Counted from the first letter of the stretch, positions 3,543 through 38,675 are shown. The stretch is 55,799 nt of DNA from an uncultured Gammaproteobacteria bacterium (GCA_964497245.1 CAZCCC010000002.1:1-55799); one strand, 5' to 3'. The notes: a model not told the origin generated them from the sequence alone. Made by a program: numbers and translations.

Positions 3543-3699
3543 AGGGTTTTATTATAGCAAAATAAAAATCAAAATTCAAAATAAGATAGCCTCGCTTCAG
3601 TAAGCCTTTAATCATAATGGTAAAAATACTATAGCGTTAAAAAATTTGGGTAAAACGTTTTTTTAATGACCGTAGCTGACTGAAATCAAATATAAAAAA

Positions 3700-5274: not shown

Positions 5275-5373
5275 AAAATTGGAACACTAAGTCGATTAGT
5301 TTCGCTTAGTGATCATAAAAAACAAAACCATCGTCTCTTTTTTATCCTGCCAACCTTATCTAACAAATATCTA

Positions 5374-23461: not shown

Positions 23462-23481
23462 AATAATAGCTATTAAAAAAA

Positions 23482-23850
23482 TCAGAAACCAAAAAATCTC
23501 TTGGCTGACTTAATATCCCTTCTAATTTGTTTTTTTAACATATACAAACTCGGAAATTTTTCAACTTCTCTAAATTTAAAAACCAGTCTTTTTGTGACTT
23601 TCGTATCATATAGATTTTCTTTAAAATTTAAAATGTGGGTTTCACATGTTGGACTTAAAAAATTAAAAGTTTTAAGCGGTCCAAGATGGGTTATTGCCGG
23701 ATATAATTTATCGCCAATTTTAACAAGAGAAAAATAAATTCCCCATTGGCTTTTTTTCACCGAACGGGGAACCACTATGTTAATTGTTGAAAATCCCAAC
23801 TTTTTTCCTTGCCTGCGACCGATTTTTACCCTTCCTTCCAAAACTAACAT
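23482..23850 (-). CDS. Stand-alone riboflavin kinase domain (RibF C-terminal half)
   Basis: G.V..G...GKKLGFSTINI, GIY, ETHILNF..NLY and R...KF....L..QI..DI. Confidence 0.8.
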   Translation of the reverse strand: MLVLEGRVKIGRRQGKKLGFSTINIVVPRSVKKSQWGIYFSLVKIGDKLYPAITHLGPLKTFNFLSPTCETHILNFKENLYDTKVTKRLVFKFREVEKFPSLYMLKKQIRRDIKSAKRFFGF

Positions 23851-23851
23851 A

Positions 23852-24640
23852 TCACTTTACGGAAGTGATGGCTCCTAGATTAACAATAAGTAATTCAAAA
23901 GCGCCGGCTAAAATAGAAAGCAAGAAAAATCCTAAAAACATTATCATGAAAGCTCCATTTATTATAAGCCCCAAATTACCTATTAAGATGCAGACAATAG
24001 CAAATACTAGAATCAGCGGCAAAAAAGAAATTAAAACAGCTAATATTGAATTTAAAACTTTATTTTCTTTAAATACATTGCCTAATATTTGTCCGAAACG
24101 ATACCAAAGAACCGCACTTAAACCCGAAAAAATAAAAATTAAAGCCAGCGGGAAAAAAACAAAAAATATTTCTTCAATATCCATTAAGGCCGCCAAGATT
24201 GAAATAAAAATAAAGCTAAAACAAAAAATTAAACCTAGAGAAACATTCAAGCCTAAAAGAATAAAGCCAAATTTCAAAATGGCCAATTTTGCAAGATTTT
24301 TTTTATGCTTCCTTGCTTTTGCTAATGTGTTAAAGTAGTTAAAAATATTTTTAACTACTTTAAATTTAAAAATCTTACTGTATATTTTTTTTAGCCTAGG
24401 GTGAAATCTGCCACTAATTCTGTCATAGCCATTTTTAATCATCAAAGTATAAATTCCCATTGCAAGTCCTAAAAATAAAATTGCCGGTAAAATCGGCAAA
24501 AATATTCCCAAAAAAGCAAGCAACAATACCAGAATTATTAAAAATAACAAGACTACTTCTACAGACAAGGCAAAAATTAAATTGGCTAATTCCCATGTTC
24601 CCATTTTTTTATTTTTTTTGATTTTTAATAATTTTTTCAT
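23852..24640 (-). CDS. Hypothetical multi-pass membrane protein (start uncertain: 24640 or 24604)
   Basis: About six hydrophobic segments. Abuts the riboflavin kinase gene. Confidence 0.75.
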   Translation of the reverse strand: MKKLLKIKKNKKMGTWELANLIFALSVEVVLLFLIILVLLLAFLGIFLPILPAILFLGLAMGIYTLMIKNGYDRISGRFHPRLKKIYSKIFKFKVVKNIFNYFNTLAKARKHKKNLAKLAILKFGFILLGLNVSLGLIFCFSFIFISILAALMDIEEIFFVFFPLALIFIFSGLSAVLWYRFGQILGNVFKENKVLNSILAVLISFLPLILVFAIVCILIGNLGLIINGAFMIMFLGFFLLSILAGAFELLIVNLGAITSVK

Positions 24641-24668
24641 ATTTTTTATTGGTGACATAGAGTGAGTG

Positions 24669-24772
24669 TCCAGCACCCATTTTACGTATCAATGAATAAA
24701 AGCGTTGAATAATTTTTTTAAAAATTAAATAGATTTTTTGATTTAATTGCAACCAATAAAATAGGTGCTGGA
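24669..24772. repeat. 16-bp inverted repeat pair around a 72-bp AT-rich spacer
   Basis: TCCAGCACCCATTTTA (24669-24684) and TAAAATAGGTGCTGGA (24757-24772) are complementary at 15 of 16 positions. Confidence 0.6.
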
Positions 24773-24890
24773 TCGAGCCGAGCCGACAAAAAGCCAAAAA
24801 AGTTTAATAGCCTTTATTAATGACTTGGGTCAAAAAATTAGATCATCTGGCAAAATTTATTAATATAAACCCTTCTATAAAACTAAAAAT

Positions 24891-25697
24891 TTATGGTCTT
24901 TTCTTTTTGTGCCTTTCAAAAAATTTGTTTTTAACAGCATCTAAAAGAAGTCTAAAAACTTTATCATAAATACCAGAATCCGAAGGCACTCCTGAAATAA
25001 GGCTCTTAATTTGTTTTTCAACTTGTTCAATACTCAAGCTGTCAAATATTCCAATATTTGCATTGTTGAGCAAAACTTGTCCGGCATCTCCTATTTGCCG
25101 GACTAAGTCTTCTTTATTATAAATCTTTTCCCCTTGACGAATAACTTTAAAATGATTTAAGACCTGACACAACTGTTCTAAATCTTTTGCCGAGGAGATT
25201 AAATGGATAGTAAAATCATCTTTTTTATTCTCAAAATATTGTTCCATTTCCTGCATCATGAGTTCTCTGGCTTTTTCCTTAATTCCTAAATTATTTTCAA
25301 AAGGAATTAAAGAAAATATCCTTGAAAATTCAGCTTGTTTATTATCAACTTTTTGGGAAATTGTGGATAATATCACTTGATCAATGTTTGTCCTTAGAAA
25401 ATCAGCAGCCGCGGAAATCCTTGTGGCTATTTCTGTGCCATGATAAATAACTTTATTACAATAAATAGTGGGTTCTTTCTCTATAACTGAAATAAGCTCT
25501 TCAATGCTGGAAGCTGATTCTATTTTTCCTTTAAACTCTGAATCCTCAGCCTCTAAAACAGTCGGCCATTTATCTTCTTCCAATTCACTGTCGGCAAAAC
25601 CTTGTCCCTCTTGCAACTGACCGTCAAAATTTTCCTCTTCTTCTAAAAAACGATCTGCCCGATCAACATGATGTCTTCCTAATAATTCTGCTGCCAT
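24891..25697 (-). CDS. Hypothetical protein with acidic N-terminus and an internal ~105-aa duplication
   Basis: IESASSIEELISVI...IP.ENNLGIKEK is echoed by ISSAKDLEQLCQVL...VPSDSGIYDK. Confidence 0.8.
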   Translation of the reverse strand: MAAELLGRHHVDRADRFLEEEENFDGQLQEGQGFADSELEEDKWPTVLEAEDSEFKGKIESASSIEELISVIEKEPTIYCNKVIYHGTEIATRISAAADFLRTNIDQVILSTISQKVDNKQAEFSRIFSLIPFENNLGIKEKARELMMQEMEQYFENKKDDFTIHLISSAKDLEQLCQVLNHFKVIRQGEKIYNKEDLVRQIGDAGQVLLNNANIGIFDSLSIEQVEKQIKSLISGVPSDSGIYDKVFRLLLDAVKNKFFERHKKKRP

Positions 25698-25759
25698 AAT
25701 TATTACTTTAGATGCTTATTGAGCATTTTTATTATAGCACTATTTAAACCTTGCTTCAA

Positions 25760-27526
25760 TTAATCTTTTATAAAACCTCCAGCTTGAAGCTGCCAAAGTC
25801 TTTGGTAAAGACCACTTTTTTTTTCAAGCAATTCATCATGGCTACCATCCTCAATCATTCCTCCATCATCAATAACTATTATCCTATCCATTTTTCTTAT
25901 GGTTGAAAGACGATGAGCAATGGCAATAACGGTTTTATTAACCATTAATTTATCAAGAGCATCTTGAATTAAAAGTTCTGATTCAGAATCAAGGCTTGAA
26001 GTCGCTTCGTCTAAAATTAAAATTGGAGAATTTCGCAAAATCGCCCTGGCAATCGCTACTCGCTGTCTTTCACCACCGGAAAGTTTTACCCCTCGTTCCC
26101 CAACATAAGTATTATAGCCATCTGAAAATCCGGAAATGAATTCATGACAGTGTGCTAATTTAGCCGCATCAATTATTTCCTGATTGGATACTTTCGACCG
26201 GCCATAAGCGATATTTTCATTGAGCGGACGATGGAATAAAATCGGATCTTGAGGCACTAAACTGATATGTCTCCACAAACTTTCTTGAGTAACTTTTGCT
26301 ATATCCTGACCATCAATTAAAATTTGGCCAGAACAAACATCATGCAGTCTTAAAAGCAGACGGACAATAGTTGTTTTGCCGGCACCAGAAGGTCCAATTA
26401 AAGCCAGACGCTGACCAGGTTCAACAGTCAAATTAAAGTCTTTAAGAACTTTTCTGGTCTTGTGATAATAAAAATCAACTCTATTGAATTCAATTTTACC
26501 TTTATTTATTTTCAACTGTTCGGCTGATAAAATGTCTTTTATTTCATGCGGCTGATTAAGAATTGCCACCATCTCCTCTGCATCAGAAAGAGCTTCATAG
26601 GTTTGTCTTAAAATTCGACCAAATTCCCAAACTCGATGAAAAATATTTATTAAATAAGCTTGGATTAAAACAAAATCACCAACTGTAAGAATTCCTTTTT
26701 TCCAAAGTAAAACCGCCAGATAAAATACGCCTAGTTCTAAAACAACCATCATAAAACCCTGCAAAGCTTCGAAAAAAGAGTCCAAATCCCATGTAAATTT
26801 TCTCAATTGCCTCAAATCTTCATTTACATTTTTGAATCCTTTAACTTCTTTATTAAAACCATTAAAAAGCTTGATTGTGATATTGTTGGTTATTGTGTCG
26901 GCTAAAAAACCGGTAGTTTTAGTTTCCGCTTCGCTCCGCATTATATCATACTTTAATTTATATTTGGTAAAAAACCAATTAACAAATAAAAACAATATTA
27001 TCCAAATAAAAACCGCCAGGCTTAAAAGCCAATTGCGGCTTAAAAGAACAAAAATTATTATTAAAACATTAATAACAAGAGGAAATAGATTCCAAGTAAT
27101 TCTATCAACAATTATTTCAAAGGCTCGACTGAACCACTTAATTTTTTTTACCAGTGAGCCAACAAAATTATTATTGAAAAAAGAAAAAGAATGACGATGC
27201 AAATAAACAAAACAATAATTTGCCAAATCAACCATTACTTTTGATTGAAAATAATTGGAGTTAAAAGTCGCTAACCGCCAAAATCCCCAAGAAATAAGCT
27301 GTAGTCCTGCAACCACGAGCAAAATTAAGATTAATTTATTGACAATCAAACCTTGCTCTTGACCTGAAACTAAAACATCAAAAAATCTTTTATAAAAAAG
27401 CGGAACAATAACTCCAACCACCGAAGCGCCAAAAACTGAAATAAAAATAACAGTTACTGAAAATTTATAATTCAGCGAGTGTTGCCAAAAAATCTTTAAA
27501 GTTTTTCTTGTATTGTCTTGTACCAC
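25760..27526 (-). CDS. ABC exporter, fused permease and ATP-binding domains
   Basis: Six TM helices, GPSGAGKT, LSGGERQR, LDEATS and AHRLST. GTG start. Confidence 0.95.
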   Translation of the reverse strand: MVQDNTRKTLKIFWQHSLNYKFSVTVIFISVFGASVVGVIVPLFYKRFFDVLVSGQEQGLIVNKLILILLVVAGLQLISWGFWRLATFNSNYFQSKVMVDLANYCFVYLHRHSFSFFNNNFVGSLVKKIKWFSRAFEIIVDRITWNLFPLVINVLIIIFVLLSRNWLLSLAVFIWIILFLFVNWFFTKYKLKYDIMRSEAETKTTGFLADTITNNITIKLFNGFNKEVKGFKNVNEDLRQLRKFTWDLDSFFEALQGFMMVVLELGVFYLAVLLWKKGILTVGDFVLIQAYLINIFHRVWEFGRILRQTYEALSDAEEMVAILNQPHEIKDILSAEQLKINKGKIEFNRVDFYYHKTRKVLKDFNLTVEPGQRLALIGPSGAGKTTIVRLLLRLHDVCSGQILIDGQDIAKVTQESLWRHISLVPQDPILFHRPLNENIAYGRSKVSNQEIIDAAKLAHCHEFISGFSDGYNTYVGERGVKLSGGERQRVAIARAILRNSPILILDEATSSLDSESELLIQDALDKLMVNKTVIAIAHRLSTIRKMDRIIVIDDGGMIEDGSHDELLEKKSGLYQRLWQLQAGGFIKD

Positions 27527-27595
27527 TTTGATTAATATTAAACTTCTTAAATAGCTAATATGTCATAATTATACACCAAAGTCAATCAAATTAAA

Positions 27596-27615
27596 AATAA
27601 AGGGTATTAACCCTT
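27596..27615. repeat. 20-bp repeat AATAAAGGGTATTAACCCTT, copy 1
   Basis: Identical to 53900-53919. Internal dyad AAGGGT-ATTA-ACCCTT. Confidence 0.85.
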
Positions 27616-27623
27616 TTTGACTC

Positions 27624-27682
27624 CCTGCCTGCCGGTTTTCACGCCATGCAACGGCAGGCAGGCCTACCTACTGACAGGCAGG
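27624..27682. repeat. Tandem CCTGCCTGCCG..GCAGGCAGG-type palindromes
   Basis: Perfect 11-bp inverted repeat (27624-27634 / 27652-27662), then a degenerate copy CCTACCTACTGACAGGCAGG (27663-27682). Confidence 0.8.
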
Positions 27683-28045
27683 CTCGGCTCGGAAACAATC
27701 CGCCAAATAATGGCGCGCTATGCTAATTTAATAATTAACCAAATGCAAAAAACAACAAGCTGCCGTGCTTTTGCATTTATATCTGAATATTAAGTCTTTC
27801 ATGTCAGCCTTCGATACTATTGTGTTCTGGCAGTGTGTCTCGGTCTAGAACCAAGACTTTACAAGCATTATAAGGGTTATTCAACTATTTTACCATAACG
27901 GGATTTGAGCCACTCAGGTCGGGGTAAATGAGATAAATGCAACAGTATAAAAAGGAAAAATGAGTAAAAAAAATTTGACTTTGTATAATTTATAATTTTC
28001 TTAATCTATATTTACTTTTATGGCTAATATATGTAAAATTATAAT

Positions 28046-28876
28046 ATGATAAACGAAAATAACAGTTTAAAATTATGTGCCAAAGGCTCCAGAAAAATGG
28101 GTCATGATTTTATTGAAGAAACAAAATATCTAGCGGGTATAATTGATTGCATAGAAATTGACTTCAACTACCCTCATGACGGTGATTTCAAGAAAGAAAT
28201 GGCATATCTAAAAAAACTGCAAAAAGAAAAAAATATAAAATATACTGTTCACGCCCAATATCTTAGTGGCAACATTAATGACTTCAATGATAAAATCAGG
28301 CAGGAAAGCATAAAACAGATACTTAAATCAATTGATTATGCTTCCCAGTTAAATGCTTCGGTTGTGACTCTTCATCCCGCTTTAGAACCGTATGGGTTGA
28401 AACTTGAAAAAAGAAAAGAGTTAGAAATTGAAGCCTATAAAAAGATAACTACTTACGTCAGCAGAAAGAAGATTCAAATAGGTTTAGAAAATGAGGCGCA
28501 GACTTGCTTTTGGTTTCCTGACAGGGCCTGCAAGTTTAAACTACTCAGTGAGACAATATTAAAAATCAAAAATAAATATTTCGGCATGACTCTTGATATC
28601 GGACATGCCAACGTCAGCGGTGAAGATGCTATTTCAGCCATTAAAAAATACAATTCAAAAATATTTCATATCCATTCCCACGATAATTTCGGCAGGCCAG
28701 AGGATAATTTAAGAAAAACCAACAGACCTGATCCACATTTGGCTCCCGGCAAAGGAATTATAAATTGGAAAAAGGCAATTGATACCTTAAAAAAAATAAA
28801 TTTCAAAGGATATTTCGAACTGGAGTGTGAAATACATGAGATGGCCGAGACGGTTGAATATATAAATAGTCTGTAA
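28046..28876 (+). CDS. Sugar phosphate isomerase/epimerase family protein (xylose-isomerase-like TIM barrel)
   Basis: Metal-binding pattern GLENE, LDIGHAN, HIHSHDN, HLAPGKGIINW and ELE. Confidence 0.88.
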   Translation: MINENNSLKLCAKGSRKMGHDFIEETKYLAGIIDCIEIDFNYPHDGDFKKEMAYLKKLQKEKNIKYTVHAQYLSGNINDFNDKIRQESIKQILKSIDYASQLNASVVTLHPALEPYGLKLEKRKELEIEAYKKITTYVSRKKIQIGLENEAQTCFWFPDRACKFKLLSETILKIKNKYFGMTLDIGHANVSGEDAISAIKKYNSKIFHIHSHDNFGRPEDNLRKTNRPDPHLAPGKGIINWKKAIDTLKKINFKGYFELECEIHEMAETVEYINSL

Positions 28877-28973
28877 TTAAAATCAAAGTCATAAATTCAG
28901 GTATAACAAAAAATCGCTAATTAAACGATTTTTGCTATAGTAAATAGGAGTTAGAAAATAAAGGACGGTTGGA

Positions 28974-29095
28974 TTAACGGTGTCCGCGCGCAAGATAATC
29001 TTGTAAGGCGTCGTATATGCCGGGAATAAATCGATTGGCATTTTCAGGGTTATTTGGGTTGATCCAACTGTAACCACTATATTCTTCGCAAATCT
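28974..29095 (-). pseudogene. Possible 3' remnant of a Nudix hydrolase gene
   Basis: A frame different from the 62-aa track ORF reads (I)KICEEYSGYSWINPNNPENANRFIPGIYDALQDYLARGHR*, resembling the Nudix C-terminal L.EEH..Y.W pattern. No start codon. Confidence 0.4.
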
Positions 29096-30061
29096 TTATA
29101 CCTTCTTGCCAATACTCAACTGATTGGCTAATTTTAGATAATAAGAAGCAATGGCAATATCAAAAACTGCCAAACCCATAGGGTTAAACATTATGTTATT
29201 ATTTTTCAACTTAGTTAAACAATTATTAAAAACTACATCGACCAAGTTATAAGTATCTTTTTGTTTTAATCCTTTCTCTTTAGCTAAAACTTCTATATCT
29301 GTATTCTCACGACAAACTTCCTCCCAATCATCAACAATGATTGATTTTTTAACATAAGGATATATATCAGGCTTAAAATCTCTTAATGAAATATTCAACA
29401 GTGTCGCTCCTGACTTTGGTTTTTGATCAATATATGGTGCTGCTGAAACAGTACAAGTGATAAAAATATCCGAATCTAAATATGATTCTTGCCAATTTTT
29501 TGTTATCACTATTTTACTCCTAATATTTTCATCAATTTCATCTTTAAAAATTATTGGCCTAACGTCATATAAAAAAATTTTTTCTAGGTGATCACCAAAA
29601 ATTGAGGTACATAGTTTAAGATGATTTTGACCGATCGGACCCCAACCGATAATACCAAGATTTATCTTATTTAATTTTTTAACCTTTCGATAATGTTTAA
29701 GAAATAAACCAGTGACAGACGCTGTACGAATTATACTAATTAAAGCTGTATTAATTACGGCCATCGGCTGACCTGTATGACTATCGTTTAAGACAACTAC
29801 ACAACTAGCGCGAGGTAATTTTTTTTTGATATTATCAGGAAAACTAGCAATCCATTTAATCCCAGACATATCTATTTCTCCACCAACATAGGCTGGCATA
29901 GCAATAATCCGATTTTTTAAACTACCATATCTTAAATACGGCTTTAATGGCTGACTAAAATCACCTCTTTTAAGACACAAAGCAGCCTGCTCTATAATCT
30001 TAATACATTTAGGCCAATCTATACCTATCTTTTTAATATCACTTTCATTTAAATAAAGCAT
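29096..30061 (-). CDS. sbnB: 2,3-diaminopropionate biosynthesis protein SbnB (ornithine cyclodeaminase family)
   Basis: QPLKPYLR, NRIIAMPAYVGG, GIKWIASFPDN, PRAS, NISLRD and FNPMGLAVFDIA. Adjacent to sbnA. Confidence 0.92.
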   Translation of the reverse strand: MLYLNESDIKKIGIDWPKCIKIIEQAALCLKRGDFSQPLKPYLRYGSLKNRIIAMPAYVGGEIDMSGIKWIASFPDNIKKKLPRASCVVVLNDSHTGQPMAVINTALISIIRTASVTGLFLKHYRKVKKLNKINLGIIGWGPIGQNHLKLCTSIFGDHLEKIFLYDVRPIIFKDEIDENIRSKIVITKNWQESYLDSDIFITCTVSAAPYIDQKPKSGATLLNISLRDFKPDIYPYVKKSIIVDDWEEVCRENTDIEVLAKEKGLKQKDTYNLVDVVFNNCLTKLKNNNIMFNPMGLAVFDIAIASYYLKLANQLSIGKKV

Positions 30062-30067
30062 AAAACT

Positions 30068-31042
30068 TTAGTTATTTTTTGATTCTTTTTTTAAATTTTT
30101 ACACCAACCTGGATTATAGACAGTAGATGAATATCTTTCTCCCCGATCAGGAAAAATGGCAACAACTATTGGTGGCCTTTTAAATTTTTTATTTTTGAAA
30201 AATGCCTTAACTGCGGCAGTTACGGTACCGGAAGAACCACCAGCTAAAATTCCTGCTTGTTTTAATAACCAATTACAATTCTTAATTGTTTCGAGTTCAT
30301 CAATCATTACAACTTCATCGAAGTTAGCATGTTTTAAGATACTTGGCACTATACTAGAACCAATTCCGGGAATATAACGTGTCTTTTTTTGATCTCCAAA
30401 AATTAATGACCCAACGACATCAACAGCAATCACTTTTGCTTGTGGAAATTCTTTCTTAATTCTTCTTGAGACGCCTGCAATTGTACCACCGGAACTAACA
30501 GCAATAAAAATATAATCAAGTCGTGAACACTGTTCACAAATTTCCCGACCCAAAGAATTATAATAAGCTTCAGCATTATATGGGTTACCATACTGGTTTA
30601 CCCAATATGAATTGGGGTGTTTTTTTACAAAATTCTTAACATATTTGATGCGGTTGATAACGTATCCACCACCTTGATCCGGCTTAGTTATTTTGATCGT
30701 TTTATTGCTCCAAAGTCTAATTATTTTTTCGTTAAATGGTAAAATGTTGGGATCAATAACACAATGAAATTTTAATCCAACCACTTTGCAATAAGCAGAG
30801 AGGGCGATACCAAAATTGCCAGAAGAAGATTCAATAATAATTGTTTTTTTATTGATAATTTTTCTCCGGATCACTTTATTAATAATATGAAAAGCAGCTC
30901 GATCTTTTAAACTACCGGTCGGATTATAAAATTCTAATTTGGCAAAAAAATTGATGTTCTTAAATTCTTTATCTTTAATTTTCACAAGTGGCGTATTGCC
31001 AACAGTCTCAAATAAACTAGAATAAACGTATTTCCCTGACAT
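30068..31042 (-). CDS. sbnA: 2,3-diaminopropionate biosynthesis protein SbnA (PLP, CysK-like)
   Basis: GNTPLV, NPTGSLKDR (PLP Lys), ESSSGNFG, KPDQGGGY...RI, NQYGNP, RYIPGIGSS and PDRGERY. Confidence 0.92.
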   Translation of the reverse strand: MSGKYVYSSLFETVGNTPLVKIKDKEFKNINFFAKLEFYNPTGSLKDRAAFHIINKVIRRKIINKKTIIIESSSGNFGIALSAYCKVVGLKFHCVIDPNILPFNEKIIRLWSNKTIKITKPDQGGGYVINRIKYVKNFVKKHPNSYWVNQYGNPYNAEAYYNSLGREICEQCSRLDYIFIAVSSGGTIAGVSRRIKKEFPQAKVIAVDVVGSLIFGDQKKTRYIPGIGSSIVPSILKHANFDEVVMIDELETIKNCNWLLKQAGILAGGSSGTVTAAVKAFFKNKKFKRPPIVVAIFPDRGERYSSTVYNPGWCKNLKKESKNN

Positions 31043-31056
31043 ATTAATAGTAACGA

Positions 31057-31887
31057 TTAGATGTTAATAGACTCTGCGTCAACAGCGAATTTAATGTTGT
31101 AATCTTGGTATTTTTTTTGTAATTTTATTAAATCACTGTTAGTACGATTATACTTATCTTCAATATGCACAAAAAACACAGCATTAGGATTCAAGGCTTT
31201 AATAATCCTTAAATTATCCCTATCAAATCCAGTAAACTGTCTAATCCTATGATTGGCTGGTAAAATCTTAGCACCCTTCACATTATCCTCAAAAAAACCC
31301 ATATTCATTACCAGTATGTCAATTTTTTGAAACTCTTTTTTTATTGGTAGATCCATAGAATGATCAGGGCAAAGCAAAACTTGCTTCTTGCCTTGTTTTA
31401 AATGGTAGGCAGAGAAAGTTGAATTATTCAATCTTACAGGTTTAATCAAGATATTTTTTATCTGTATTCCTTTTGGAGTTATTTTTTTAATCTTAATATA
31501 ACCCTTGGTTTCAAAATACCACAAACCAGGAACAAACTTTTTAAAATTATTAAAGTCGTAGGCTGGAATATGAATGTTAATTGGTTTTTTCTTCTTGGTA
31601 AAAAATTCGTTTTCTTGTAAACTCTCAACAATTCGAAACCCTAAAGTATGATCCGGGTGCCAGTGGGTGTAAAAAATATTTTCGATTTTTTCAATTTTAT
31701 TAAAATTCAAAGAATCATTAATATCTTCTGGGGTATCAATTAAAGTGCTGATCTCTTCGATAAATAAAGCCGGACCATGCCGTTTTAACGGCCAGCCTTT
31801 TCGTCGCGCTTGGTTACATATTTTACAGCGACAACCAGCTCTAGGGATAGGCAAAAAACCACCTGAACCTAATATTTTAATTTTCAT
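31057..31887 (-). CDS. MBL-fold metallo-hydrolase (PhnP-like)
   Basis: LGSGG...P..GCRCKIC (Zn site), LIDTPED, THWHPDHTLG and VHIE. Confidence 0.88.
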   Translation of the reverse strand: MKIKILGSGGFLPIPRAGCRCKICNQARRKGWPLKRHGPALFIEEISTLIDTPEDINDSLNFNKIEKIENIFYTHWHPDHTLGFRIVESLQENEFFTKKKKPINIHIPAYDFNNFKKFVPGLWYFETKGYIKIKKITPKGIQIKNILIKPVRLNNSTFSAYHLKQGKKQVLLCPDHSMDLPIKKEFQKIDILVMNMGFFEDNVKGAKILPANHRIRQFTGFDRDNLRIIKALNPNAVFFVHIEDKYNRTNSDLIKLQKKYQDYNIKFAVDAESINI

Positions 31888-31967
31888 ACTTAGTCAATTA
31901 ATAAATTTAATTAATTATATTAACAAATGAATATAAAACAAGTATAACAAAAAAGATAAAGAAAAAA

Positions 31968-31996
31968 AAGCTACCACAATCAGGATTGGGTAGCTT
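31968..31996 (-). terminator. Intrinsic terminator of the aaRS cassette
   Basis: AAGCTACC-A-CAATC-AG-GATTG-GGTAGCTT hairpin, followed on the minus strand by a T-run. Confidence 0.75.
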
Positions 31997-32018
31997 GGAA
32001 ATCTTAGACTAAAGAGCC

Positions 32019-32948
32019 TTACGGTAAAAGCTCACTCATAGTGGTTGGCCATTGAGCAGTGTCGAAACCGAACTGCGATAGAAAAACATACGCCATTCGG
32101 CCAAAACCCAAACCTTGGCACCCGCTCCATATATCAGCATTACTTTCAGTTTGCAGACCAAAACCATTGACTAACCGATCATGCGCGATATCGCCACCAC
32201 CTAGTTCTAGCCACTCACCAGTTGCTGGTATCCAGCCTTCAATATCAATGGTAGGAATTTCATCAATGCTGATGGCTTCGTCCAAGTAATGGCTATATTT
32301 TTCTGAGTGCTTGTGGCAACAAGAGGTTCCAACGACGAGGCGCCAATTCATGCCCAGCCGATTTAGCAGCTCTGTCATATGGCGAAGTGTCTGCCAGCGG
32401 ATATCTTTCACTTCTGCAGGGGAACCTAGAAAAACTAGTTCCGCGCCGCAAAACTCCAGGCCAGTGTGAAAACCATGATTGAAGCGCTCTGGTTTTTCGT
32501 TGCGGTATGTCCAACCTCCCAACACCTCGAAAATTTTCAGTGGTAGAAGATCATCTGAGATCTTGCCTTGGCTAAAATAATGGTAGAACGAGGTACACTG
32601 CAAAGGATCAAGCATCCTCGCCTCCAACGGGCGTTCTTCAAGTCGATGTGGCGTGACATCGAATAACTCTAACGGCAAGTTAGGCACAGCCAGCCAGCCA
32701 AATGATTCTAGGCTAGCGGTATGCTGCAAACGAGGAAATATCCATTCCTCGTAGCCGACAGCTGGAACGATATGTCGTCGCAAAGCCTCATGCAAAGCAC
32801 GTATCAGCCGCGCCATCGGTGCCAAGTAGATCCACTGGCCGGTACTGAATGGCTTAACCCAATTAAACCTTACTGCTTCTTCAGCGACATTACCGGTATA
32901 AGGAACCGATACGTCTTCATGCTTTAGCACTTGTCCAACATTAAACAT
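32019..32948 (-). CDS. Stand-alone class II aaRS catalytic domain homologous to methanogen-type (atypical, Zn) SerRS; possible amino acid ligase
   Basis: WVKPFSTGQW, FPRL, PLQCTSFYHYF, LPLKIFE..GGWTYRNE (motif 2), WSGCQGLGFGR (motif 3) and FLSQFGFD..QWP. No N-terminal tRNA-binding domain. Confidence 0.8.
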   Translation of the reverse strand: MFNVGQVLKHEDVSVPYTGNVAEEAVRFNWVKPFSTGQWIYLAPMARLIRALHEALRRHIVPAVGYEEWIFPRLQHTASLESFGWLAVPNLPLELFDVTPHRLEERPLEARMLDPLQCTSFYHYFSQGKISDDLLPLKIFEVLGGWTYRNEKPERFNHGFHTGLEFCGAELVFLGSPAEVKDIRWQTLRHMTELLNRLGMNWRLVVGTSCCHKHSEKYSHYLDEAISIDEIPTIDIEGWIPATGEWLELGGGDIAHDRLVNGFGLQTESNADIWSGCQGLGFGRMAYVFLSQFGFDTAQWPTTMSELLP

Positions 32949-32962
32949 AACGTTACTCCTTT

Positions 32963-34279
32963 CTACGGCGTCACCCGGCTCATTGTCCGGGGAAATAGTG
33001 CCGCTTCTTTGATGCTTGACAGACCAAGAAGCTGCATAGTCAGCCGCTCCAGGCCAAGTCCCAATCCACCATGTGGAGGCATACCGTGCTTGTGAATCTG
33101 TAAATAGGGCTCAAACTCGGACGGGTCATACCCAAAACGCCGAAGCTTTTCGACCTGCATGGCGAAATCGTGAATTCGTTGCCCACCGGTGGTAACTTCG
33201 AGTCCCCGAAACAGCAAGTCAAAACTCAAAGTGACTGCCACGTCCTCGGGATCTTCCATCGCATACATCGGACGCTTAGCCGTCGGATAGTGCGTGACAA
33301 ATACGAACTCGCTGCCTGTTTCGGCCAATACGTGTTCACAAATAATCTTCTCGCTCTTGCCATCCAGGTCATTCCTGTCCAAAATCTCATGCTCGCGCCC
33401 GACGATCTCCAAGGCCTCGGACATCCGCAGAGCGGGAATCTCGCCAATCCTAGGTACAACGACGTCGATCAATTCCAATTCTGCAGCACAAATTTCCGTC
33501 AGTCGAGTGAAAACGTAGTTGAGCAAATACGTCTCAACTTGCATCACATCTTCAAATCCAACAATCGGCCCCATCTCGAAGTCCATCGAAGTGTATTCGT
33601 TGAGATGCCTGGCGGTTTCATGAGGTTCGGCCCGGAAAACCGGTCCGACTTCAAAGACCCGTCCGAACACGCCGACCATCATCTGCTTATAAAACTGGGG
33701 CGACTGTGCCAAAACCAACTGTTTGCCGAAGTAATCAATCTTGAAAACGTTGGCACCGCCTTCTGCTCCGGCAAAAACCAATTTCGGCGTATGGATTTCG
33801 GTAAATCCGACCCGAATCAATCCCTCCCGAAACAGCTGGCCTATTACCGCTTGAATGGTGAAAATCGCCTGCTGCCCGGGATGGCGAAGACTAATGGGAC
33901 GATGATCAAGGTTGGTATCAAGGCTAGCTTTGAGGATCTTGCGATTGATGCTAAACGGCATCTCTTCGGACGGCCTCGAAAGAACCTCGACACTTTCCAA
34001 CTCAATCTCTGCCCCATGGGGAGCGCGTTCTTCCTTTCGACATATGCCGGTGGCAGAAATGTAGTTGCCTTCGGTATACGACTCAGTCGCGATTGAGGTG
34101 TTTTCGGACTCGACCTTGCACTGAATCAGCGACCTGCCATCACGAATGACGACAAAACATAAGCCTCCGAATTGACGGACTTTATGAACGGCGCCACTGA
34201 TAGTCATCCTTTCACCATCGTGTCGCGCTAGTTCTTGAGCATTGATACCCAGATGCGATTCTGCAATAATCCTTCTCAT
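32963..34279 (-). CDS. aspS: Aspartate--tRNA(Asp/Asn) ligase, archaeal-type, non-discriminating
   Basis: OB-fold, AEGGANVF, LAQSPQFYKQ, FRAEPHETARHLNEY, GGQRIH and PPHGGLGLGLERL. No bacterial GAD insert. His in AVHKVR and Pro in RAPHG match non-discriminating determinants. ATG 34279 overlaps the upstream stop (ATGA). Confidence 0.93.
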   Translation of the reverse strand: MRRIIAESHLGINAQELARHDGERMTISGAVHKVRQFGGLCFVVIRDGRSLIQCKVESENTSIATESYTEGNYISATGICRKEERAPHGAEIELESVEVLSRPSEEMPFSINRKILKASLDTNLDHRPISLRHPGQQAIFTIQAVIGQLFREGLIRVGFTEIHTPKLVFAGAEGGANVFKIDYFGKQLVLAQSPQFYKQMMVGVFGRVFEVGPVFRAEPHETARHLNEYTSMDFEMGPIVGFEDVMQVETYLLNYVFTRLTEICAAELELIDVVVPRIGEIPALRMSEALEIVGREHEILDRNDLDGKSEKIICEHVLAETGSEFVFVTHYPTAKRPMYAMEDPEDVAVTLSFDLLFRGLEVTTGGQRIHDFAMQVEKLRRFGYDPSEFEPYLQIHKHGMPPHGGLGLGLERLTMQLLGLSSIKEAALFPRTMSRVTP

Positions 34280-34548
34280 GACGCTTCCTCCTGTTCTTGC
34301 CTTGCTATCGTAGCCTGGCATGGGTTGGTTGAAGAAATAATCATCTCGTACTCCTTAGGGTAGTCTCGCCGTAATACGGCAAGCCAACGACCGGCTTTTG
34401 CCAAGTCGTCATTTCCGGTTTCCGCCAAGACAATGGTATAAGCCGCAGTCGTACTGTTGCTTTGTTGAACCAAATGGATCAGCTCAAATTTGTCCAACAC
34501 AGGCTTGCACCGTGCCTTGACTTCGGATACTGAACGTCCTGTAGTCAT
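34276..34548 (-). CDS. Hypothetical 90-aa protein, first gene of the aaRS cassette
   Basis: AAGGAGGT SD upstream and ATGA coupling to aspS. Confidence 0.8.
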   Translation of the reverse strand: MTTGRSVSEVKARCKPVLDKFELIHLVQQSNSTTAAYTIVLAETGNDDLAKAGRWLAVLRRDYPKEYEMIISSTNPCQATIARQEQEEAS

Positions 34549-34608
34549 AGCGTGGTTACCTCCTTATTTGGTTGTAGTGTACATTGCAAAGGCTTTTGCC
34601 TTCAAATT

Positions 34609-34637
34609 AAAATATCACTAATTGATGACCATGTCAA
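34609..34637 (-). promoter_or_regulatory. Sigma70-type promoter of the aaRS cassette
   Basis: Minus strand reads TTGACA, 17 nt, TATTTT, with an extended TG. Confidence 0.65.
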
Positions 34638-34729
34638 TAGTATACAGAAGAATGTAAAGAAGAAGTAGTATACAGAATTAACAAAAAAACACCAAAAATG
34701 GCGCCATGTCGATTGATTCAATTATACTT

Positions 34730-35722
34730 TTATTTGCTTGTGATGGCAATAATTTTATTAATATAATTTTTATTTATTTTTGTAGATAATTTCGTATTAT
34801 TTAACCCTTCATCTGTCATTTGAATCCATGACATAAAATAGTATAATTTAAATAAATCCTTTAATTCATTAAAACTTTTGTCTACTTTTTTAAATTTTAA
34901 GTAACCATCCCAAAAACTATTAGAAATAGAGTCGATAGAGTAATTTGCTCCAATCTCCAATCCTGCTAATACGAATCTTTGATCTGTAAATCTATAATCT
35001 TCCAAATCAATATGACCATTAAAAACCCATTTACTATCTATGTAATTTACCATTCCTTGTATACCGTCAACATGAGAAAATACATATTCTTTTGGATCAG
35101 TCCATTTATTTTTTTTATTTAAAATAAAAATATCAATTTTTTTTGCACCTTCTTTTGATAAATATTTATTATTAATTAAATGATAAAATCTGATCTCTAA
35201 GGCTAAAAAGAAACTGCTTTTCTATTCAGTTAAATATGGAATTTTTTGATTAGCCCAACCATCATAATATCTTGTTATCCTATTTAGTTTCCCAAATTCC
35301 ATTCCAGACAATTTCAAAAGTTCATCTTTATTTGGATAATTATTTAGAACTAAATGTTCTCTCAGAGAAAAACCTTCCAACTTAGAAATTAATTGATAAA
35401 AATAAGGAATATCTTCCGTCGGTAACCCACTCGACAGAAGTTTATAAGTTTTAATATTATTATTAATCAGTAAATTAAATGAGCTCTTAAAACTATCTGA
35501 CCTTCCACCATAAACTCTTTGCTCAGGTTTTTCTAGCTGTAAAGAATCTGCCCCTATCTTTTTAGATAATTTAATAATAAACTTTTTAATTTTAGATCCT
35601 AAATTAACATCAATAATATAAACAAATCCACTATGGCCTCCTTTTACTTCATGGGATTTTAAAAACTCACCATGTAGTTTTTCTTTTACTATTTGACTTA
35701 TACAAGTGTCATGTTTATTCAT
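34730..35722 (-). pseudogene. APH/choline-kinase-like phosphotransferase interrupted by one in-frame TAG (35222-35224)
   Basis: The two track ORFs share a frame: ...IPYLTE*KSSFFLALEIRF...VFSHVDGIQGMVNY...GHIDLED. G-rich loop GGHSGFVY, IIK lysine, HxD and DxE motifs. Confidence 0.8.
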
Positions 35723-35774
35723 ATATTTATTATTATAACATATACTTAAAAATATGCATACAAATTGTATATAA

Positions 35775-35960
35775 CTACCATAAAAAAAGCCAGCTAATCA
35801 TTAAAAATAGCTGTCTGTTTGAGTTAGGTAAAGTACGTATATAATTTTTATAATCAAAACCTTCCTTTTTTAATATTAAACTATATAACTCAGAAAGAAA
35901 TTCATCTTCTTCAAAGTGAATTATTTTTCTTTTCTCGATCTCTTTTAATAATTTCATCAA
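35775..35960 (-). pseudogene. Truncated receiver-domain gene
   Basis: KIIHFEEDEFLSELYSLILKKEGFDY resembles a receiver N-terminus. The ORF runs into a CAGCTA/TAGCTG hairpin and T-run before reaching a phosphoacceptor Asp. Confidence 0.55.
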
Positions 35961-36354
35961 TTGCTTCCATCACTTCTCTGGGTGTACAGTCTCGTTTGAA
36001 AATATAAGCCACCGCGCCCATCTCTTGGCTTCTCACTCGGTCTCGGTGTGTATCAAGATTGGTAAAAATTACAATCGGGATATCCTTGGTTTTGGGATTC
36101 TTTTTTACCGCCTCCAAATATTCCCAGCCCTGTTCGGCAATGGTATTTTCCGGCTTGGGAATAATGATATCAAGCAAGACCAAATCGGGCTGTTCAAATT
36201 CAGTAACATACAGAGCTTCTTCAATATTGGCAGTTGATAAAAAATCATAACCATTACTCAGTAAAAAATCATGGTAAATGTCAACCAAACCCTGTTCGTC
36301 TTCAACCAAAAGGATTCGGCCTTTGTCTGATTTCATAATATTTGTAGATTTCAT
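35911..36354 (-). CDS. Single-domain response regulator
   Basis: ILLVEDE, PDLVLLDIIIP, FTN and YIFK. Confidence 0.92.
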   Translation of the reverse strand: MKSTNIMKSDKGRILLVEDEQGLVDIYHDFLLSNGYDFLSTANIEEALYVTEFEQPDLVLLDIIIPKPENTIAEQGWEYLEAVKKNPKTKDIPIVIFTNLDTHRDRVRSQEMGAVAYIFKRDCTPREVMEAIDEIIKRDREKKNNSL

Positions 36355-36371
36355 ATTAATTTTGAAATTAA

Positions 36372-38675
36372 TTAATCTTGGTTAAATATGACAATCTTTT
36401 TTTCTCTGGTAACCGGCTTTTCTTGTCCCGTGGCTGTCTGCTGGTTTTTGTAGACAGGAAGAGTGAAGCTGAAAGTTGAGCCTTTGCCTATGCCTTCGCT
36501 GAAACAGGATATTTCCCCGTTGTTTCCTTCAACGATTTTTTTGGCGATAAACAGTCCAAGCCCGGAACCGTCCGGCCGAAGGTCGGTGGCGTTTTGACCG
36601 CGGGAAAATTTTTGAAACAGTTTTTTCTTGCCTTCTTCGGATATGCCCACACCTGTATCTTTAATATTGATTTTCAAATAATCTTTGCCAACCATTTCAT
36701 AAGAAAGAGTGACTGCGCCTTTGCGGGTATAATAAACGGCATTATCTAAAAGGTTGGAAATAACATGAGCGGTTTTTTTGTAGTCACACCAGACAAGGGG
36801 TATGTTTCCACCAGAGGCGGATCCGCCTTTGGTGGAAAAATCAGGCTTTTTAACCGACACTTCCAAATTTCTTTCCTGAGCCAATTGCAATTTCTGCTTT
36901 TCGGGAATCAAACGGTTGACGATTTCCGTAATATCGGTTTTTTGCGGATCCATTTCCATTCTTTCGCCTTCTAGTTCATAGGCATCCCAAAAATCGGATA
37001 CTGTTGAACTAATCCTTTCCAACCCGCCCTTAATTGACTTTATTGCTTTTTCTTTTGGGTAGGAGTCTTCTTCCAGCATGGAAAAATATCCTTTCATTAC
37101 CGATAACGGCGTATTTAATTGATGGTTGACTACCCGCAAAAAATCAGTTTTCATATTAAGCAATTCTTGCAGGTATTTATTTTTTTCTTCAATGTCTTTG
37201 CTTTGGGATTTTATTTCTTTGGTCTGACCGTCAACCTTTTGCTTTAAAGTCTTGTTAAAATCCTGGACCTCCTTATACAGCTTGGCATTGTCAATGGCAA
37301 TGCCGGCTTGATATGATAATGTGCTTAAAAGTTCCAAATCTTCTTTAGTATAGGCATCACCGGAAATTTTTGCACCCAAAACAATAATACCAATCAGCTT
37401 ATTATTGCTTAAAAGCGGAAGACATAAAGATGCTTCAATATGCTCCATGTGATTATAAAGGTTTTTAAATCCCATCTGATCCTTTTTTATTTTGGCGTCA
37501 CGGGCAATTAAAAAAAGTTCATCGCGAACCATTGGTTTTTGATTTTTCTGCAAATATTGAGTCAAAAAATTATCCTGGACCAAACTGATTCCATTCTGCT
37601 CATTGAATCCAATAACCTTGGCAATTTGATAATGAACCGGCTTTTTGTCCGAATTCACCAAGAGTACTCCGGTACGGTTAAGGTTCATCGTCTCTTTAAT
37701 ACTACCAACAATGGAATCAATTATTTTATCCAGGTCAGTATAATAATTAAGCTCCTTGGTCAGCTTATTGATGGTTTCCTGATAGTTGTACAGGCTGGTA
37801 AAAAAATACTTATTAGAAAAATTCTTCAACAACTTGCCTAGCTGGTAAAACGCGACGACAAATAGCGGCGCGATAATTATTCCAGCCAGATAGCTTGTCT
37901 GATTGAATACTCCACCAAACATTTCTTCATAGCTCCAAACAATAAAATAAAATGCCCCATAAGTAAATAGGGCCACTCCGAAATAGGTAAAAATTCTCCT
38001 AGCTACAATTCTAATATCCATCAGGCGATAGCGAAAAATTGCGTAAGCGACGATAAATGGCGAAAAAGAAATAGTGATATTCAAGAAAGGATAAAGGTCG
38101 AACTTATAGACGGGCAGAAAAGCAAAGAAGCCACCAGAAAATCCAATAACCGTAGCGACCAATATATACTTTATTTGATCTTTGCCTACGCCTTTGCTCT
38201 TTTTGAATGCCAGCCAAAGCAAGATGTGGCAATAGATTACCAGCGAAATAAAAAATATCAAAAACAATGAATAAAGCGAGGTGGGTGGCGAAAGGTAATA
38301 AAACTGACCAAAGACAAACCTGACCTGATCAATAAAGAAATCGGTAAACAGATTGGCTAATAAGAAAAGAAATCCAAGAGAGTATATCATCCAGATCAGC
38401 TGCTTTCTAGATATATCCAATAACTTATGAATGAAATGAGTCAATAATATTGGAATAAATATGACTCCAATATAAGAAACCTTCCACCAAAAAATTGCTT
38501 TCTGTGGATCAGTAATAGTAGCTATCCTGAAACCACCAAATCCCCATAAGGCAACGGAAAAAGAAAACAGAGCCCATATGTAATGAAGACTCTTTTTTGC
38601 TCTAAAAAGTGTAAGTAATCCCAAAATAAAACAAGGTACTCCGATTAATAATCCTGATATCGCAAATAGATTCAT
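36372..38675 (-). CDS. Sensor histidine kinase (multi-TM N-terminus, GAF, HisKA, HATPase)
   Basis: H-box VNHQLNTPL, N-box NLLDNAVYY, DTGVGI, GSGLGLFI and GSTFSF. Confidence 0.95.
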   Translation of the reverse strand: MNLFAISGLLIGVPCFILGLLTLFRAKKSLHYIWALFSFSVALWGFGGFRIATITDPQKAIFWWKVSYIGVIFIPILLTHFIHKLLDISRKQLIWMIYSLGFLFLLANLFTDFFIDQVRFVFGQFYYLSPPTSLYSLFLIFFISLVIYCHILLWLAFKKSKGVGKDQIKYILVATVIGFSGGFFAFLPVYKFDLYPFLNITISFSPFIVAYAIFRYRLMDIRIVARRIFTYFGVALFTYGAFYFIVWSYEEMFGGVFNQTSYLAGIIIAPLFVVAFYQLGKLLKNFSNKYFFTSLYNYQETINKLTKELNYYTDLDKIIDSIVGSIKETMNLNRTGVLLVNSDKKPVHYQIAKVIGFNEQNGISLVQDNFLTQYLQKNQKPMVRDELFLIARDAKIKKDQMGFKNLYNHMEHIEASLCLPLLSNNKLIGIIVLGAKISGDAYTKEDLELLSTLSYQAGIAIDNAKLYKEVQDFNKTLKQKVDGQTKEIKSQSKDIEEKNKYLQELLNMKTDFLRVVNHQLNTPLSVMKGYFSMLEEDSYPKEKAIKSIKGGLERISSTVSDFWDAYELEGERMEMDPQKTDITEIVNRLIPEKQKLQLAQERNLEVSVKKPDFSTKGGSASGGNIPLVWCDYKKTAHVISNLLDNAVYYTRKGAVTLSYEMVGKDYLKINIKDTGVGISEEGKKKLFQKFSRGQNATDLRPDGSGLGLFIAKKIVEGNNGEISCFSEGIGKGSTFSFTLPVYKNQQTATGQEKPVTREKKIVIFNQD
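36805..36838. repeat. 34-bp palindrome inserted in-frame in the histidine kinase
   Basis: TTTCCACCAGAGGCGGA|TCCGCCTTTGGTGGAAA with one mismatch. Encodes FSTKGGSASGGN. Confidence 0.9.

Follow-up and report, generated by a model that had tools for sequence, protein, structure and literature searches.

A truncated methanogen-type seryl-tRNA synthetase homolog in a mosaic accessory operon beside diaminopropionate synthesis genes: a candidate amino-acid adenylating enzyme

The window analyzed here is a stretch of 55,799 nucleotides from an uncultured bacterium deposited as a member of the Gammaproteobacteria (GCA_964497245.1, CAZCCC010000002.1:1-55799). It contains a GC-rich cassette of three genes, which encode a 90-aa protein (orf90), a complete archaeal-type aspartyl-tRNA synthetase (AspRS2), and a 309-aa protein that corresponds to the catalytic core of the methanogen-type seryl-tRNA synthetase (mSerRS), here called mini-mSerRS. 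The cassette is followed by genes for a metallo-β-lactamase (MBL)-fold hydrolase and for SbnA- and SbnB-family enzymes of L-2,3-diaminopropionate (Dap) synthesis. We tentatively propose that mini-mSerRS adenylates Dap, or a small amino acid akin to it, as part of an accessory pathway for a small molecule. The unit as a whole is a mosaic accessory operon gained by horizontal transfer, rather than a three-protein machine.

The proposal is favored because the neighborhood of mini-mSerRS, MBL, SbnA, and SbnB genes recurs in two genomes, and because the subclade that contains mini-mSerRS has specifically lost two arginines. Truncated mSerRS homologs are themselves known as amino acid:[carrier protein] (aa:CP) ligases, which load carrier proteins with glycine or alanine. 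What is new here is a clade of ~300-residue enzymes, the loss of the two arginines in one of its subclades, and the Dap/MBL context. Full-text searches of the literature, with most subscription journals outside their coverage, found no report of the gene set or of the trio, nor any that links SbnA/SbnB with a synthetase. The features of the region are as follows.

34609..34637, minus strand: sigma-70-type promoter of the cassette (TTGACA-17-TATTTT, TG before the -10 element, 10/12 matches in the promoter scan)
34276..34548, minus strand: orf90, 90 aa, all-helical, of a family without a name
32963..34279, minus strand: AspRS2, complete archaeal-type aspartyl-tRNA synthetase, 438 aa; its start overlaps the orf90 stop
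32019..32948, minus strand: mini-mSerRS, 309 aa, class II Zn-type SerRS-like catalytic core, putative amino-acid adenylating ligase
31962..31996, minus strand: intrinsic terminator, a hairpin plus U8, closing the high-GC unit
31057..31887, minus strand: low-GC gene for a PhnP/RNase Z-like hydrolase of the MBL fold, with a Cys cluster at the N-terminus
30068..31042, minus strand: SbnA-family pyridoxal phosphate (PLP) enzyme, first step of Dap synthesis
29096..30061, minus strand: SbnB-family NAD dehydrogenase, second step of Dap synthesis

A separate clade of truncated SerRS-like enzymes

On the profile models for mSerRS, mini-mSerRS scored 171 bits (NF002120, cut-off 611; positions ~312-503 of 518 plus a short N-terminal stretch) and 127 bits (TIGR00415, cut-off 490). 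The protein aligned with residues 190-507 of the 527-residue SerRS chain of Methanopyrus kandleri (3w3s). As this alignment starts at residue 190, mini-mSerRS lacks the N-terminal tRNA-binding domain, which spans roughly the first 190 residues, and an initial annotation of the gene as an mSerRS catalytic core devoid of that domain was borne out. The AlphaFold2 (AF2) model of mini-mSerRS (pLDDT 90.5) matched the SerRS structures of M. kandleri and Methanosarcina barkeri with TM scores of 0.85-0.87 and 24-27% identity (E 4e-28 and 6e-26, respectively), and that of the aa:CP ligase Bll0957 at E 1.7e-17. mSerRS (PDB 2cim, 2cj9, and 3w3s) is therefore its best match in both sequence and structure, with the Cys-Glu-Cys Zn site, motifs 2 and 3, and the C-terminal helices all kept. 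The two differ in the ~190 missing N-terminal residues, in the replacement of two invariant arginines, and in that the genome carrying mini-mSerRS also has a bacterial SerRS.

Residues were compared across four groups derived from the tree described below (25 full-length mSerRS, 9 subclade, 27 other mini, and 16 aa:CP-like rows). The motifs PLQC, AELVF, and WSGC are present in mini-mSerRS, and 29 columns were invariant across 15 homologous sequences. C118, E170, and C277, the presumed Zn ligands from structural work on the M. barkeri enzyme, were conserved in all four groups, as were R149 and E151 of motif 2 and R284 of motif 3. All six were present in 100% of the full-length, subclade, and aa:CP-like rows, and also of the other mini rows except for C118 (96%). 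The initial annotation had likewise listed three likely Zn ligands and the motif 2 and 3 arginines as kept, and mini-mSerRS probably retains all residues needed for Zn and ATP binding and for aminoacyl-adenylate formation. The protein is under constraint rather than free of purifying selection, an outcome for which the same annotation had left room.

The exception is a segment of motif 2, given at first as DRV.EF.R.E, which does read HTGLEFCGAE in mini-mSerRS. The two strand arginines of this segment (ERVxEFxRxE) are R in 25/25 full-length rows, and are replaced by T162 and G168 in 9/9 rows of the subclade. The other minis mostly carry K or R at position 162 and R at position 168; in the aa:CP-like clade, the two residues are R and M, respectively (94% each). 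The replacement itself was upheld and extends to a whole subclade. Positions 162 and 168 presumably face the amino-acid site, and the initial annotation named the lost Arg as the contact of the serine hydroxyl.

Close relatives of mini-mSerRS are few, with six besides itself (40-53% identity) in a collection of 5.8 billion proteins. An exhaustive search of representatives yielded 237 relatives at E <= 0.001, many of them ~300 aa long and interleaved with full-length mSerRS. From the 112 listed matches of at least 280 aa, those covering fewer than ~220 profile positions were dropped, and the remaining 96 were placed in a tree by a quick LG+G4 search that included no experimentally characterized aa:CP ligase sequence. 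Three groups emerged: full-length mSerRS (31 rows), an aa:CP-ligase-like clade of 370-410-aa proteins (23 rows, support 100), and a "mini" clade (42 rows, support 99). The window protein falls in a nine-member subclade of the last (support 99). Some members of the aa:CP-like clade scored best on the aa:CP ligase model NF005479, yet below its cut-off, and this clade and the mini clade join at support 99.

The aa:CP ligases (Bll0957, Bll6282, and Atu2573; NF005479; PDB 3mey and 4h2s) resemble mini-mSerRS in being mSerRS homologs without the tRNA-binding domain, in their Zn ligands, motif 2 and 3 arginines, and class II core fold, and in the joining of the two clades. However, mini-mSerRS scored 27.1 bits on NF005479 (cut-off 357) and belongs to a separate clade of ~300-aa proteins, so that it did not group with these ligases, as the initial annotation had considered it might. 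It is 16-17% identical to Bll0957 chains, compared with 24-27% to mSerRS, and has T162 and G168 where the aa:CP-like clade has Arg and Met. Furthermore, it is accompanied by MBL, SbnA, and SbnB genes rather than by a gene for a carrier protein.

A scan of species-representative genomes for mini-mSerRS returned two loci, L016 and L017. In L017 (Planctomycetota), a relative with 31% identity has neighbors of another kind, namely an ABC transporter and a fusion protein of the radical SAM type. Judging from such contexts, the mini clade appears to serve several different pathways. Distant relatives in L017 (5830-8894), P0044, and P0052 are overlapped by or fused to radical SAM domains (one of them viperin-like) or an aldo-keto reductase, and the relative in L017 is followed by an operon of the ABC importer type.

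Dap synthesis genes and a hydrolase in the shared neighborhood

The SbnA and SbnB genes of the window are adjacent and co-oriented. SbnA scored 385 bits on TIGR03945 (cut-off 350) and SbnB 325.2 bits on TIGR03944, just below the cut-off of 326.9. A similar gene set was found in L016, a Patescibacteria metagenome-assembled genome with a uniform GC content of ~40%. There, a homolog 50% identical to mini-mSerRS is followed directly by an MBL gene (36% identical to that of the window), an SbnB-family gene, and an SbnA-family gene; the order of the four differs between L016 and the window. Upstream lie genes for an ATP-grasp ligase and a PLP enzyme resembling diaminopimelate (DAP) decarboxylase, and the locus also encodes a methyltransferase and a protein of the AMP-nucleosidase/PNP type. 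The opposite strand carries, downstream, genes for an archaeal-type AspRS (48% identical to AspRS2), convergent with the mini-mSerRS homolog at a distance of 4.3 kb, and for a deaminase-like amidohydrolase. The L016 genome also encodes a full bacterial AspRS (734 bits). No homolog of orf90 was found in L016, and no ACP-like open reading frame (ORF) was seen there by eye, its small ORFs not having been run against the family library. A non-Ser substrate such as Dap, one of several options raised in the initial annotation, gains support from this MBL-SbnB-SbnA synteny and from the loss of the two arginines in the subclade.

The MBL enzyme of the window weakly matched the RNase Z model (42 bits). 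Its family is rare, being found in 8/401 genomes sampled from the host class (E <= 1e-10) and in 0/9 genomes of the host family within that sample. Outside the window, MBL genes adjoin a ThiF-family adenylyltransferase (in L028 and L030, described below) and, in genomes G394 and G356, a fusion between a glutamyl-tRNA-reductase (GluTR)-like protein and the core of a class IIb aminoacyl-tRNA synthetase (aaRS). This habit of adjoining adenylate-forming enzymes supports a functional link between the MBL enzyme and mini-mSerRS. The fusions (L123 9203-11206 in G394 and L124 6080-8161 in G356; 667-693 aa) consist of a GluTR-like N-terminal domain, an NADP-binding domain, and a class IIb core without an anticodon domain, and may be aminoacyl-reducing enzymes.

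SbnA scored above the cut-off in 2/401 of the class genomes sampled. In the second of these, G267, the contig starts at SbnA, and the gene after SbnA and SbnB encodes a Ddl-like ligase of the ATP-grasp type (D-Ala-D-Ala-ligase family). Further along, this contig (G267:C9; L149 44-6367) encodes an unknown protein of 448 aa, a peptidase of family C39, and an aminotransferase of class III; it appears to be another Dap-using cluster in the same class. In the window itself, the region downstream of SbnB (22562-28876) has a plus-strand gene for a TIM-barrel protein resembling xylose isomerase. It also encodes a fused ABC exporter, two proteins of unknown kind (268 and 274 aa), and an EamA transporter. 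These genes may be part of the same accessory region, and the two transporters count in favor of the proposed Dap pathway.

A mobile orf90-AspRS2 module with a varying third gene

The three ORFs of the cassette were called at 34548..34276, 34279..32963, and 32948..32019, all on the minus strand and coupled. AGGAGG-type Shine-Dalgarno sequences precede all three starts, and the orf90 stop overlaps the AspRS2 ATG in an ATGA; the AspRS2 frame is also open from 34321, which would give a 452-aa reading. GC content is 0.47-0.52 over 32000-34599 and 0.24-0.36 on either flank. The terminator hairpin after the mini-mSerRS stop has a free energy of -18.7 kcal/mol (z -3.85; 0/200 shuffles as good). The GC profile, the promoter scan, and this hairpin confirmed the cassette as a higher-GC unit with its own promoter, strong Shine-Dalgarno sequences, ATGA coupling, and terminator, as first described.

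An assembly chimera could be ruled out, as both GC boundaries are bridged at even depth by contigs from four sludge-metagenome runs (e.g., 31870-33350 and 34557-34881), and two independent contigs (L028 and L030) hold the same kind of high-GC cassette within low-GC DNA. In the same four runs, contig depth summed to 11-15 over the 150-nt segment 31906-32056, which covers the end of mini-mSerRS and the terminator, compared with 4-5 in other places, and other sludge contigs diverge at 31896 and 31943; this segment is therefore also present in other contexts in those samples. No T-box or riboswitch was detected in 28500-36500 (Rfam, E <= 1), the sole match being a chance miRNA, and no tRNA gene was found in the window. 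Direct repeats were not found around the cassette, nor did the repeat at its terminator have a second copy in its own genome. Just upstream of the cassette lie two short ORFs, at 34730-35053 (107 aa; weakly similar, at E 0.0033, to the C-terminal portion of fructosamine kinase) and 35222-35722 (166 aa), which may be halves of a broken kinase gene.

AspRS2 scored 514 bits on NF003483, the model for aspartate--tRNA(Asn) ligase (cut-off 353), and 376.5 bits on TIGR00458 (cut-off 368.4). Both the anticodon-binding OB domain (PF01336) and the class IIb core (PF00152) were matched, in agreement with the original call of a full AspRS; "non-discriminating" is the name of the hidden Markov model matched by AspRS2, and nothing more. 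The host assembly (1.17 Mb, 46 contigs, 91.5% complete) also encodes a bacterial SerRS, a bacterial-type AspRS (contig C18), and GatB; close homologs of the cassette genes are labeled Patescibacteria or Candidatus Buchananbacteria by their sources. Searched with the AsnRS model, neither the own genome nor any of the 20 genomes of the host family (0/20) had an AsnRS above the cut-off. A third class IIb gene (~200 bits in this search) was found only in the own genome (G000) and in G402, where tblastn identified it as AspRS2. In Thermus and Deinococcus, a second, archaeal-type AspRS works with GatCAB in tRNA-dependent asparagine formation, and the window genome likewise pairs an archaeal-type with a bacterial-type AspRS, with GatB present and no AsnRS. 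The difference is that AspRS2 lies in a mobile higher-GC operon behind orf90. Because 18/20 family genomes show no such third gene in this AsnRS-model search, AspRS2 is an accessory copy that is not needed for Asn-tRNA, and a role as the genome's sole route to it was rejected, given the bacterial AspRS and GatB.

orf90 had no match in Pfam, NCBIfam, PADLOC, or PHROGs, and one partial match of 18 residues in IMG/VR. Its homologs form 30 further clusters in the collection of 5.8 billion proteins, with R5, E9, K11, R13, S32, and the block A50-D62 invariant; Ser32-Pro33, at a helix start, is invariant as well. Neither a DSL motif nor a PP-binding match was found by the Pfam/NCBIfam scan and the alignment, which agrees with the initial description of a protein without a DSL-type carrier signature. 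The AF2 model is a six-helix bundle with a disordered tail (pLDDT 79.8). As it gave 0 matches at E <= 0.001 against the PDB (Foldseek) and a best Z of 3.9, none reaching 5, in a wide VIA-align search, no fold, ACP or other, can be assigned to it. A complex prediction of AspRS2 with orf90 from alignments scored 0.00 and is uninformative either way.

The dN/dS values of orf90 (0.24-0.29) and AspRS2 (0.07-0.12, with 0.07 for the L028 and L030 copies at 89% amino acid identity) indicate that both are functional protein genes. That orf90 is an RNA leader instead of a gene was rejected on its dN/dS, its conserved length of ~90 aa, and two in-frame fusions. Such fusions are rare: orf90 is joined to transketolase in L043 and to a PheRS-like protein in L095, and the 731-aa P0188 is a further case.

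In a sample of 401 genomes from the host class, orf90 was present in 10, the own genome included. When metagenome contigs were searched with an alignment of orf90, 80 loci were obtained, which include near-duplicate contigs, so that the following counts of the next gene after orf90 are not independent.

PheRS-like: 21 loci
TrpRS: 15 loci
Class IIb AsnRS/AspRS-like: 10 loci
Transketolase: 8 loci
AspRS2: 7 loci
416-aa TyrRS/TrpRS-family protein: 6 loci
Radical SAM: 3 loci
IucA/IucC: 2 loci
YcaO-nitroreductase: 1 locus
Inositol-phosphate synthase: 1 locus
Carbamoyltransferase: 1 locus
Nothing classifiable, or contig end: 5 loci

An aaRS-type gene directly follows orf90 in 59 of the 80 loci. The GC content of orf90 units, at 0.45-0.53, usually exceeds that of the DNA on either side (0.30-0.40). 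Given the variety of next genes and this distribution, orf90 is the leader of mobile accessory operons in general rather than a specific partner of the SerRS-like enzyme. One module recurs, in which orf90, TrpRS, and a 260-300-aa protein without a Pfam match follow one another (L050, L057, L058, L061, L064, L065, L067, L068, L077, L086, L105, and L106); a B12-binding radical SAM enzyme comes next in 7 of these 12 loci. In several loci this module has the same set of three genes beside it on the opposite strand, which looks as though a single site takes up different cassettes. Distant relatives of orf90 occur as the first gene of an operon that encodes an HATPase_c_3 protein, or as the N-terminal part of a VIT-VWA protein.

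In each of the seven closest orf90 loci (56-83% identity), the next gene is AspRS2 (67-89% identity). The DNA identity of 86% to L028 and L030 sets in at the promoter (34639) and ends precisely at the AspRS2 stop (32963); the promoter and 5' leader of the cassette are included in this conservation. In both of these Patescibacteria contigs, the third gene encodes a 252-aa ThiF-family adenylyltransferase (ThiF domain at residues 9-246), equally GC-rich and at the same spacing of 12-15 nt. A terminator and then a low-GC MBL gene, 56-57% identical to that of the window, come after it. In L031-L034, AspRS2 is followed by a radical SAM enzyme instead. The promoter, orf90, and AspRS2 are a mobile two-gene module with a varying third gene. 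The idea of the three genes as one dedicated system, put forward at first, is not supported in view of these substitutions, of the lack of orf90 in L016, and of the unrelated aaRS genes headed by orf90. The orf90-AspRS2 pair is mobile in its own right, and the arrangement of all three genes is not a conserved one. Of the co-occurrences suggested in the initial annotation, that of the trio did not hold, while that of mini-mSerRS with SbnA/SbnB-family genes was found in L016.

The sequence of L030 is that of contig C22 in G402, whose genome belongs to the host's own family but to another genus. On this contig, direct repeats of ~103 nt (L030 5482-5584 and 11686-11788, 6.2 kb apart) enclose orf90, AspRS2, ThiF, and MBL, followed by a 374-aa ORF and a small ORF. 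As the first repeat overlaps the 3' end of tRNA-Asn(GTT), the segment resembles an island that has integrated at a tRNA gene. Both L028 and L030 have tRNA-Asn genes 1.1-1.8 kb upstream. In L028, copies of tRNA-Asn(GTT) are located at 3079-3153 and 6447-6519, just upstream of the orf90 cassette; between them are a GC-rich stretch (3500-4500) and a reverse-transcriptase-like ORF (5235-6257), and a fragment resembling a serine-recombinase zinc-ribbon follows at 6578-6988.

Candidate pathways and their weight

In the pathway that we tentatively favor, mini-mSerRS would activate Dap or another small β-substituted alanine in place of serine. A substrate other than serine is suggested by the loss of the two family-invariant arginines, at one of which (position 168) the Gly/Ala-type aa:CP-like clade differs as well. 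The activated amino acid would then be ligated to an acceptor other than tRNA-Ser or an ACP-type carrier, the MBL enzyme would perform a hydrolytic release or recycling step, and the end product would be a small Dap-containing compound. AspRS2, redundant for translation, would supply Asp-tRNA as a second substrate or act as a protected spare target. For orf90, we envisage a regulatory or adaptor role as the general leader protein of mobile operons, and not that of a substrate of mini-mSerRS.

Several points weigh against this pathway. The synteny with MBL and SbnA/SbnB rests on two genomes only, the window and L016, and in L016 the best NCBIfam matches of the SbnB-like (271 of 327 bits) and SbnA-like proteins (253 of 350 bits) are both under the equivalog cut-offs. 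In the window, mini-mSerRS is high in GC, MBL-SbnA-SbnB is low, and a terminator lies between them, which suggests different histories and possibly separate transcripts. T162 and G168 are putative lining residues of the amino-acid pocket, and the acceptor is a postulated molecule. Finally, the association of AspRS2 with its third genes could be a by-product of module shuffling.

Such shuffling is the core of an alternative that we consider unlikely, in which orf90-AspRS2 and mini-mSerRS have no joint function, and the enzyme activates Ser or Gly for an acceptor encoded elsewhere. The swap of the third gene at an exact gene boundary fits this, as do the GC break and terminator that part the cassette from MBL-SbnAB, and the occurrence of distant mini-mSerRS relatives in other contexts (L017; fusions with aldo-keto reductase or radical SAM). 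However, mini-mSerRS, MBL, SbnB, and SbnA are together again in L016, in another order and at uniform GC, and MBL moves with the cassette inside the repeat-bounded island of G402. The subclade-specific T162 and G168 also speak against unaltered serine recognition. Another alternative, an aa:CP ligase with orf90 as a non-canonical carrier, we regard as very improbable. It would suit the aa:CP-like truncation of mini-mSerRS, the joining of the clades (support 99), and the size of orf90 (~90 aa), its helical build, and its invariant Ser32-Pro33. Against this stand the low NF005479 score, the weaker structural match of Bll0957 (17% identity) than of mSerRS (27%), the presence of mini-mSerRS without orf90 in L016, and an orf90 that precedes many other genes and has no PP-binding match.

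Truncated aaRS paralogs can aminoacylate other targets, as do GluQRS/YadB (tRNA-Asp queuosine), EpmA/PoxA (EF-P), and AsnA, while duplicate aaRS genes give self-resistance in antibiotic clusters. These systems share with the window a core without a tRNA-recognition domain and an extra aaRS in an accessory cluster, respectively, and each suggests a further pathway. By analogy with the former, AspRS2 would make Asp-tRNA(Asp/Asn), mini-mSerRS would add Dap or Ser to the aminoacyl-tRNA or tRNA, and the MBL enzyme would release the product, which we hold to be improbable. It gains from the anticodon-binding domain and strong purifying selection (dN/dS 0.07) of AspRS2, from its presence near mini-mSerRS in 2/2 genomes that each have a housekeeping AspRS too, from third genes that all encode carboxylate-activating or radical enzymes (mini-mSerRS, ThiF, and radical SAM), from the RNase Z match of MBL and its proximity to other aaRS-like enzymes, and from the tRNA-Asn genes upstream in L028 and L030. 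On the other hand, the window has neither a transferase nor a tRNA gene, the AspRS2 of L016 is convergent, 4.3 kb off, and outside the operon, and an integration site is the better explanation for the tRNA-Asn of L030; GluQRS and EpmA serve here as analogies. We give slightly less credence still to the broader version, in which orf90-led operons would be undescribed mobile accessory aaRS modules of Patescibacteria, and AspRS2, mini-mSerRS, MBL, and SbnA/SbnB would join Dap to Asp-tRNA or tRNA in the making of a new aminoacyl-tRNA-derived product.

By analogy with the self-resistance genes, the cluster would make an antimetabolite aimed at AspRS, with mini-mSerRS (or ThiF) as the adenylating enzyme, AspRS2 as an insensitive self-resistance copy, and MBL as an immunity or maturation phosphodiesterase; like the tRNA-dependent addition by mini-mSerRS, we hold this to be improbable. 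AspRS2 is indeed a redundant second copy within a mobile island, exporters lie near the genes of the window, and L028 and L030 add ThiF, MBL, and a 374-aa ORF that looks like a peptidase by eye (no NCBIfam match at E 1e-6). L016 contributes the PLP decarboxylase, the methyltransferase, the AMP-nucleosidase/PNP-like protein, and the amidohydrolase, which resembles a nucleobase deaminase. These accessory enzymes of L016, L028, and L030 may be akin to maturation helpers of microcin C. However, no precursor peptide or known microcin C-family model was found. Moreover, the ThiF protein has no N-terminal peptide-clamp extension, and the five kinds of aaRS preceded by orf90 in 59/80 loci are hard to square with as many inhibitor pathways.

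The mini-mSerRS subclade, tied as it is to Dap synthesis and an MBL hydrolase and not to a carrier protein, is a testable candidate for a new substrate-acceptor pair among aaRS-like enzymes. Patescibacteria rely on others for most of their building blocks. In the higher-GC islands of these very small genomes, orf90 precedes accessory genes of the aaRS type, including PheRS-, TrpRS-, TyrRS/TrpRS-family, AspRS-, and AsnRS/AspRS-like ones. The orf90-led loci make it approachable why Patescibacteria exchange spare synthetases behind a common leader gene.

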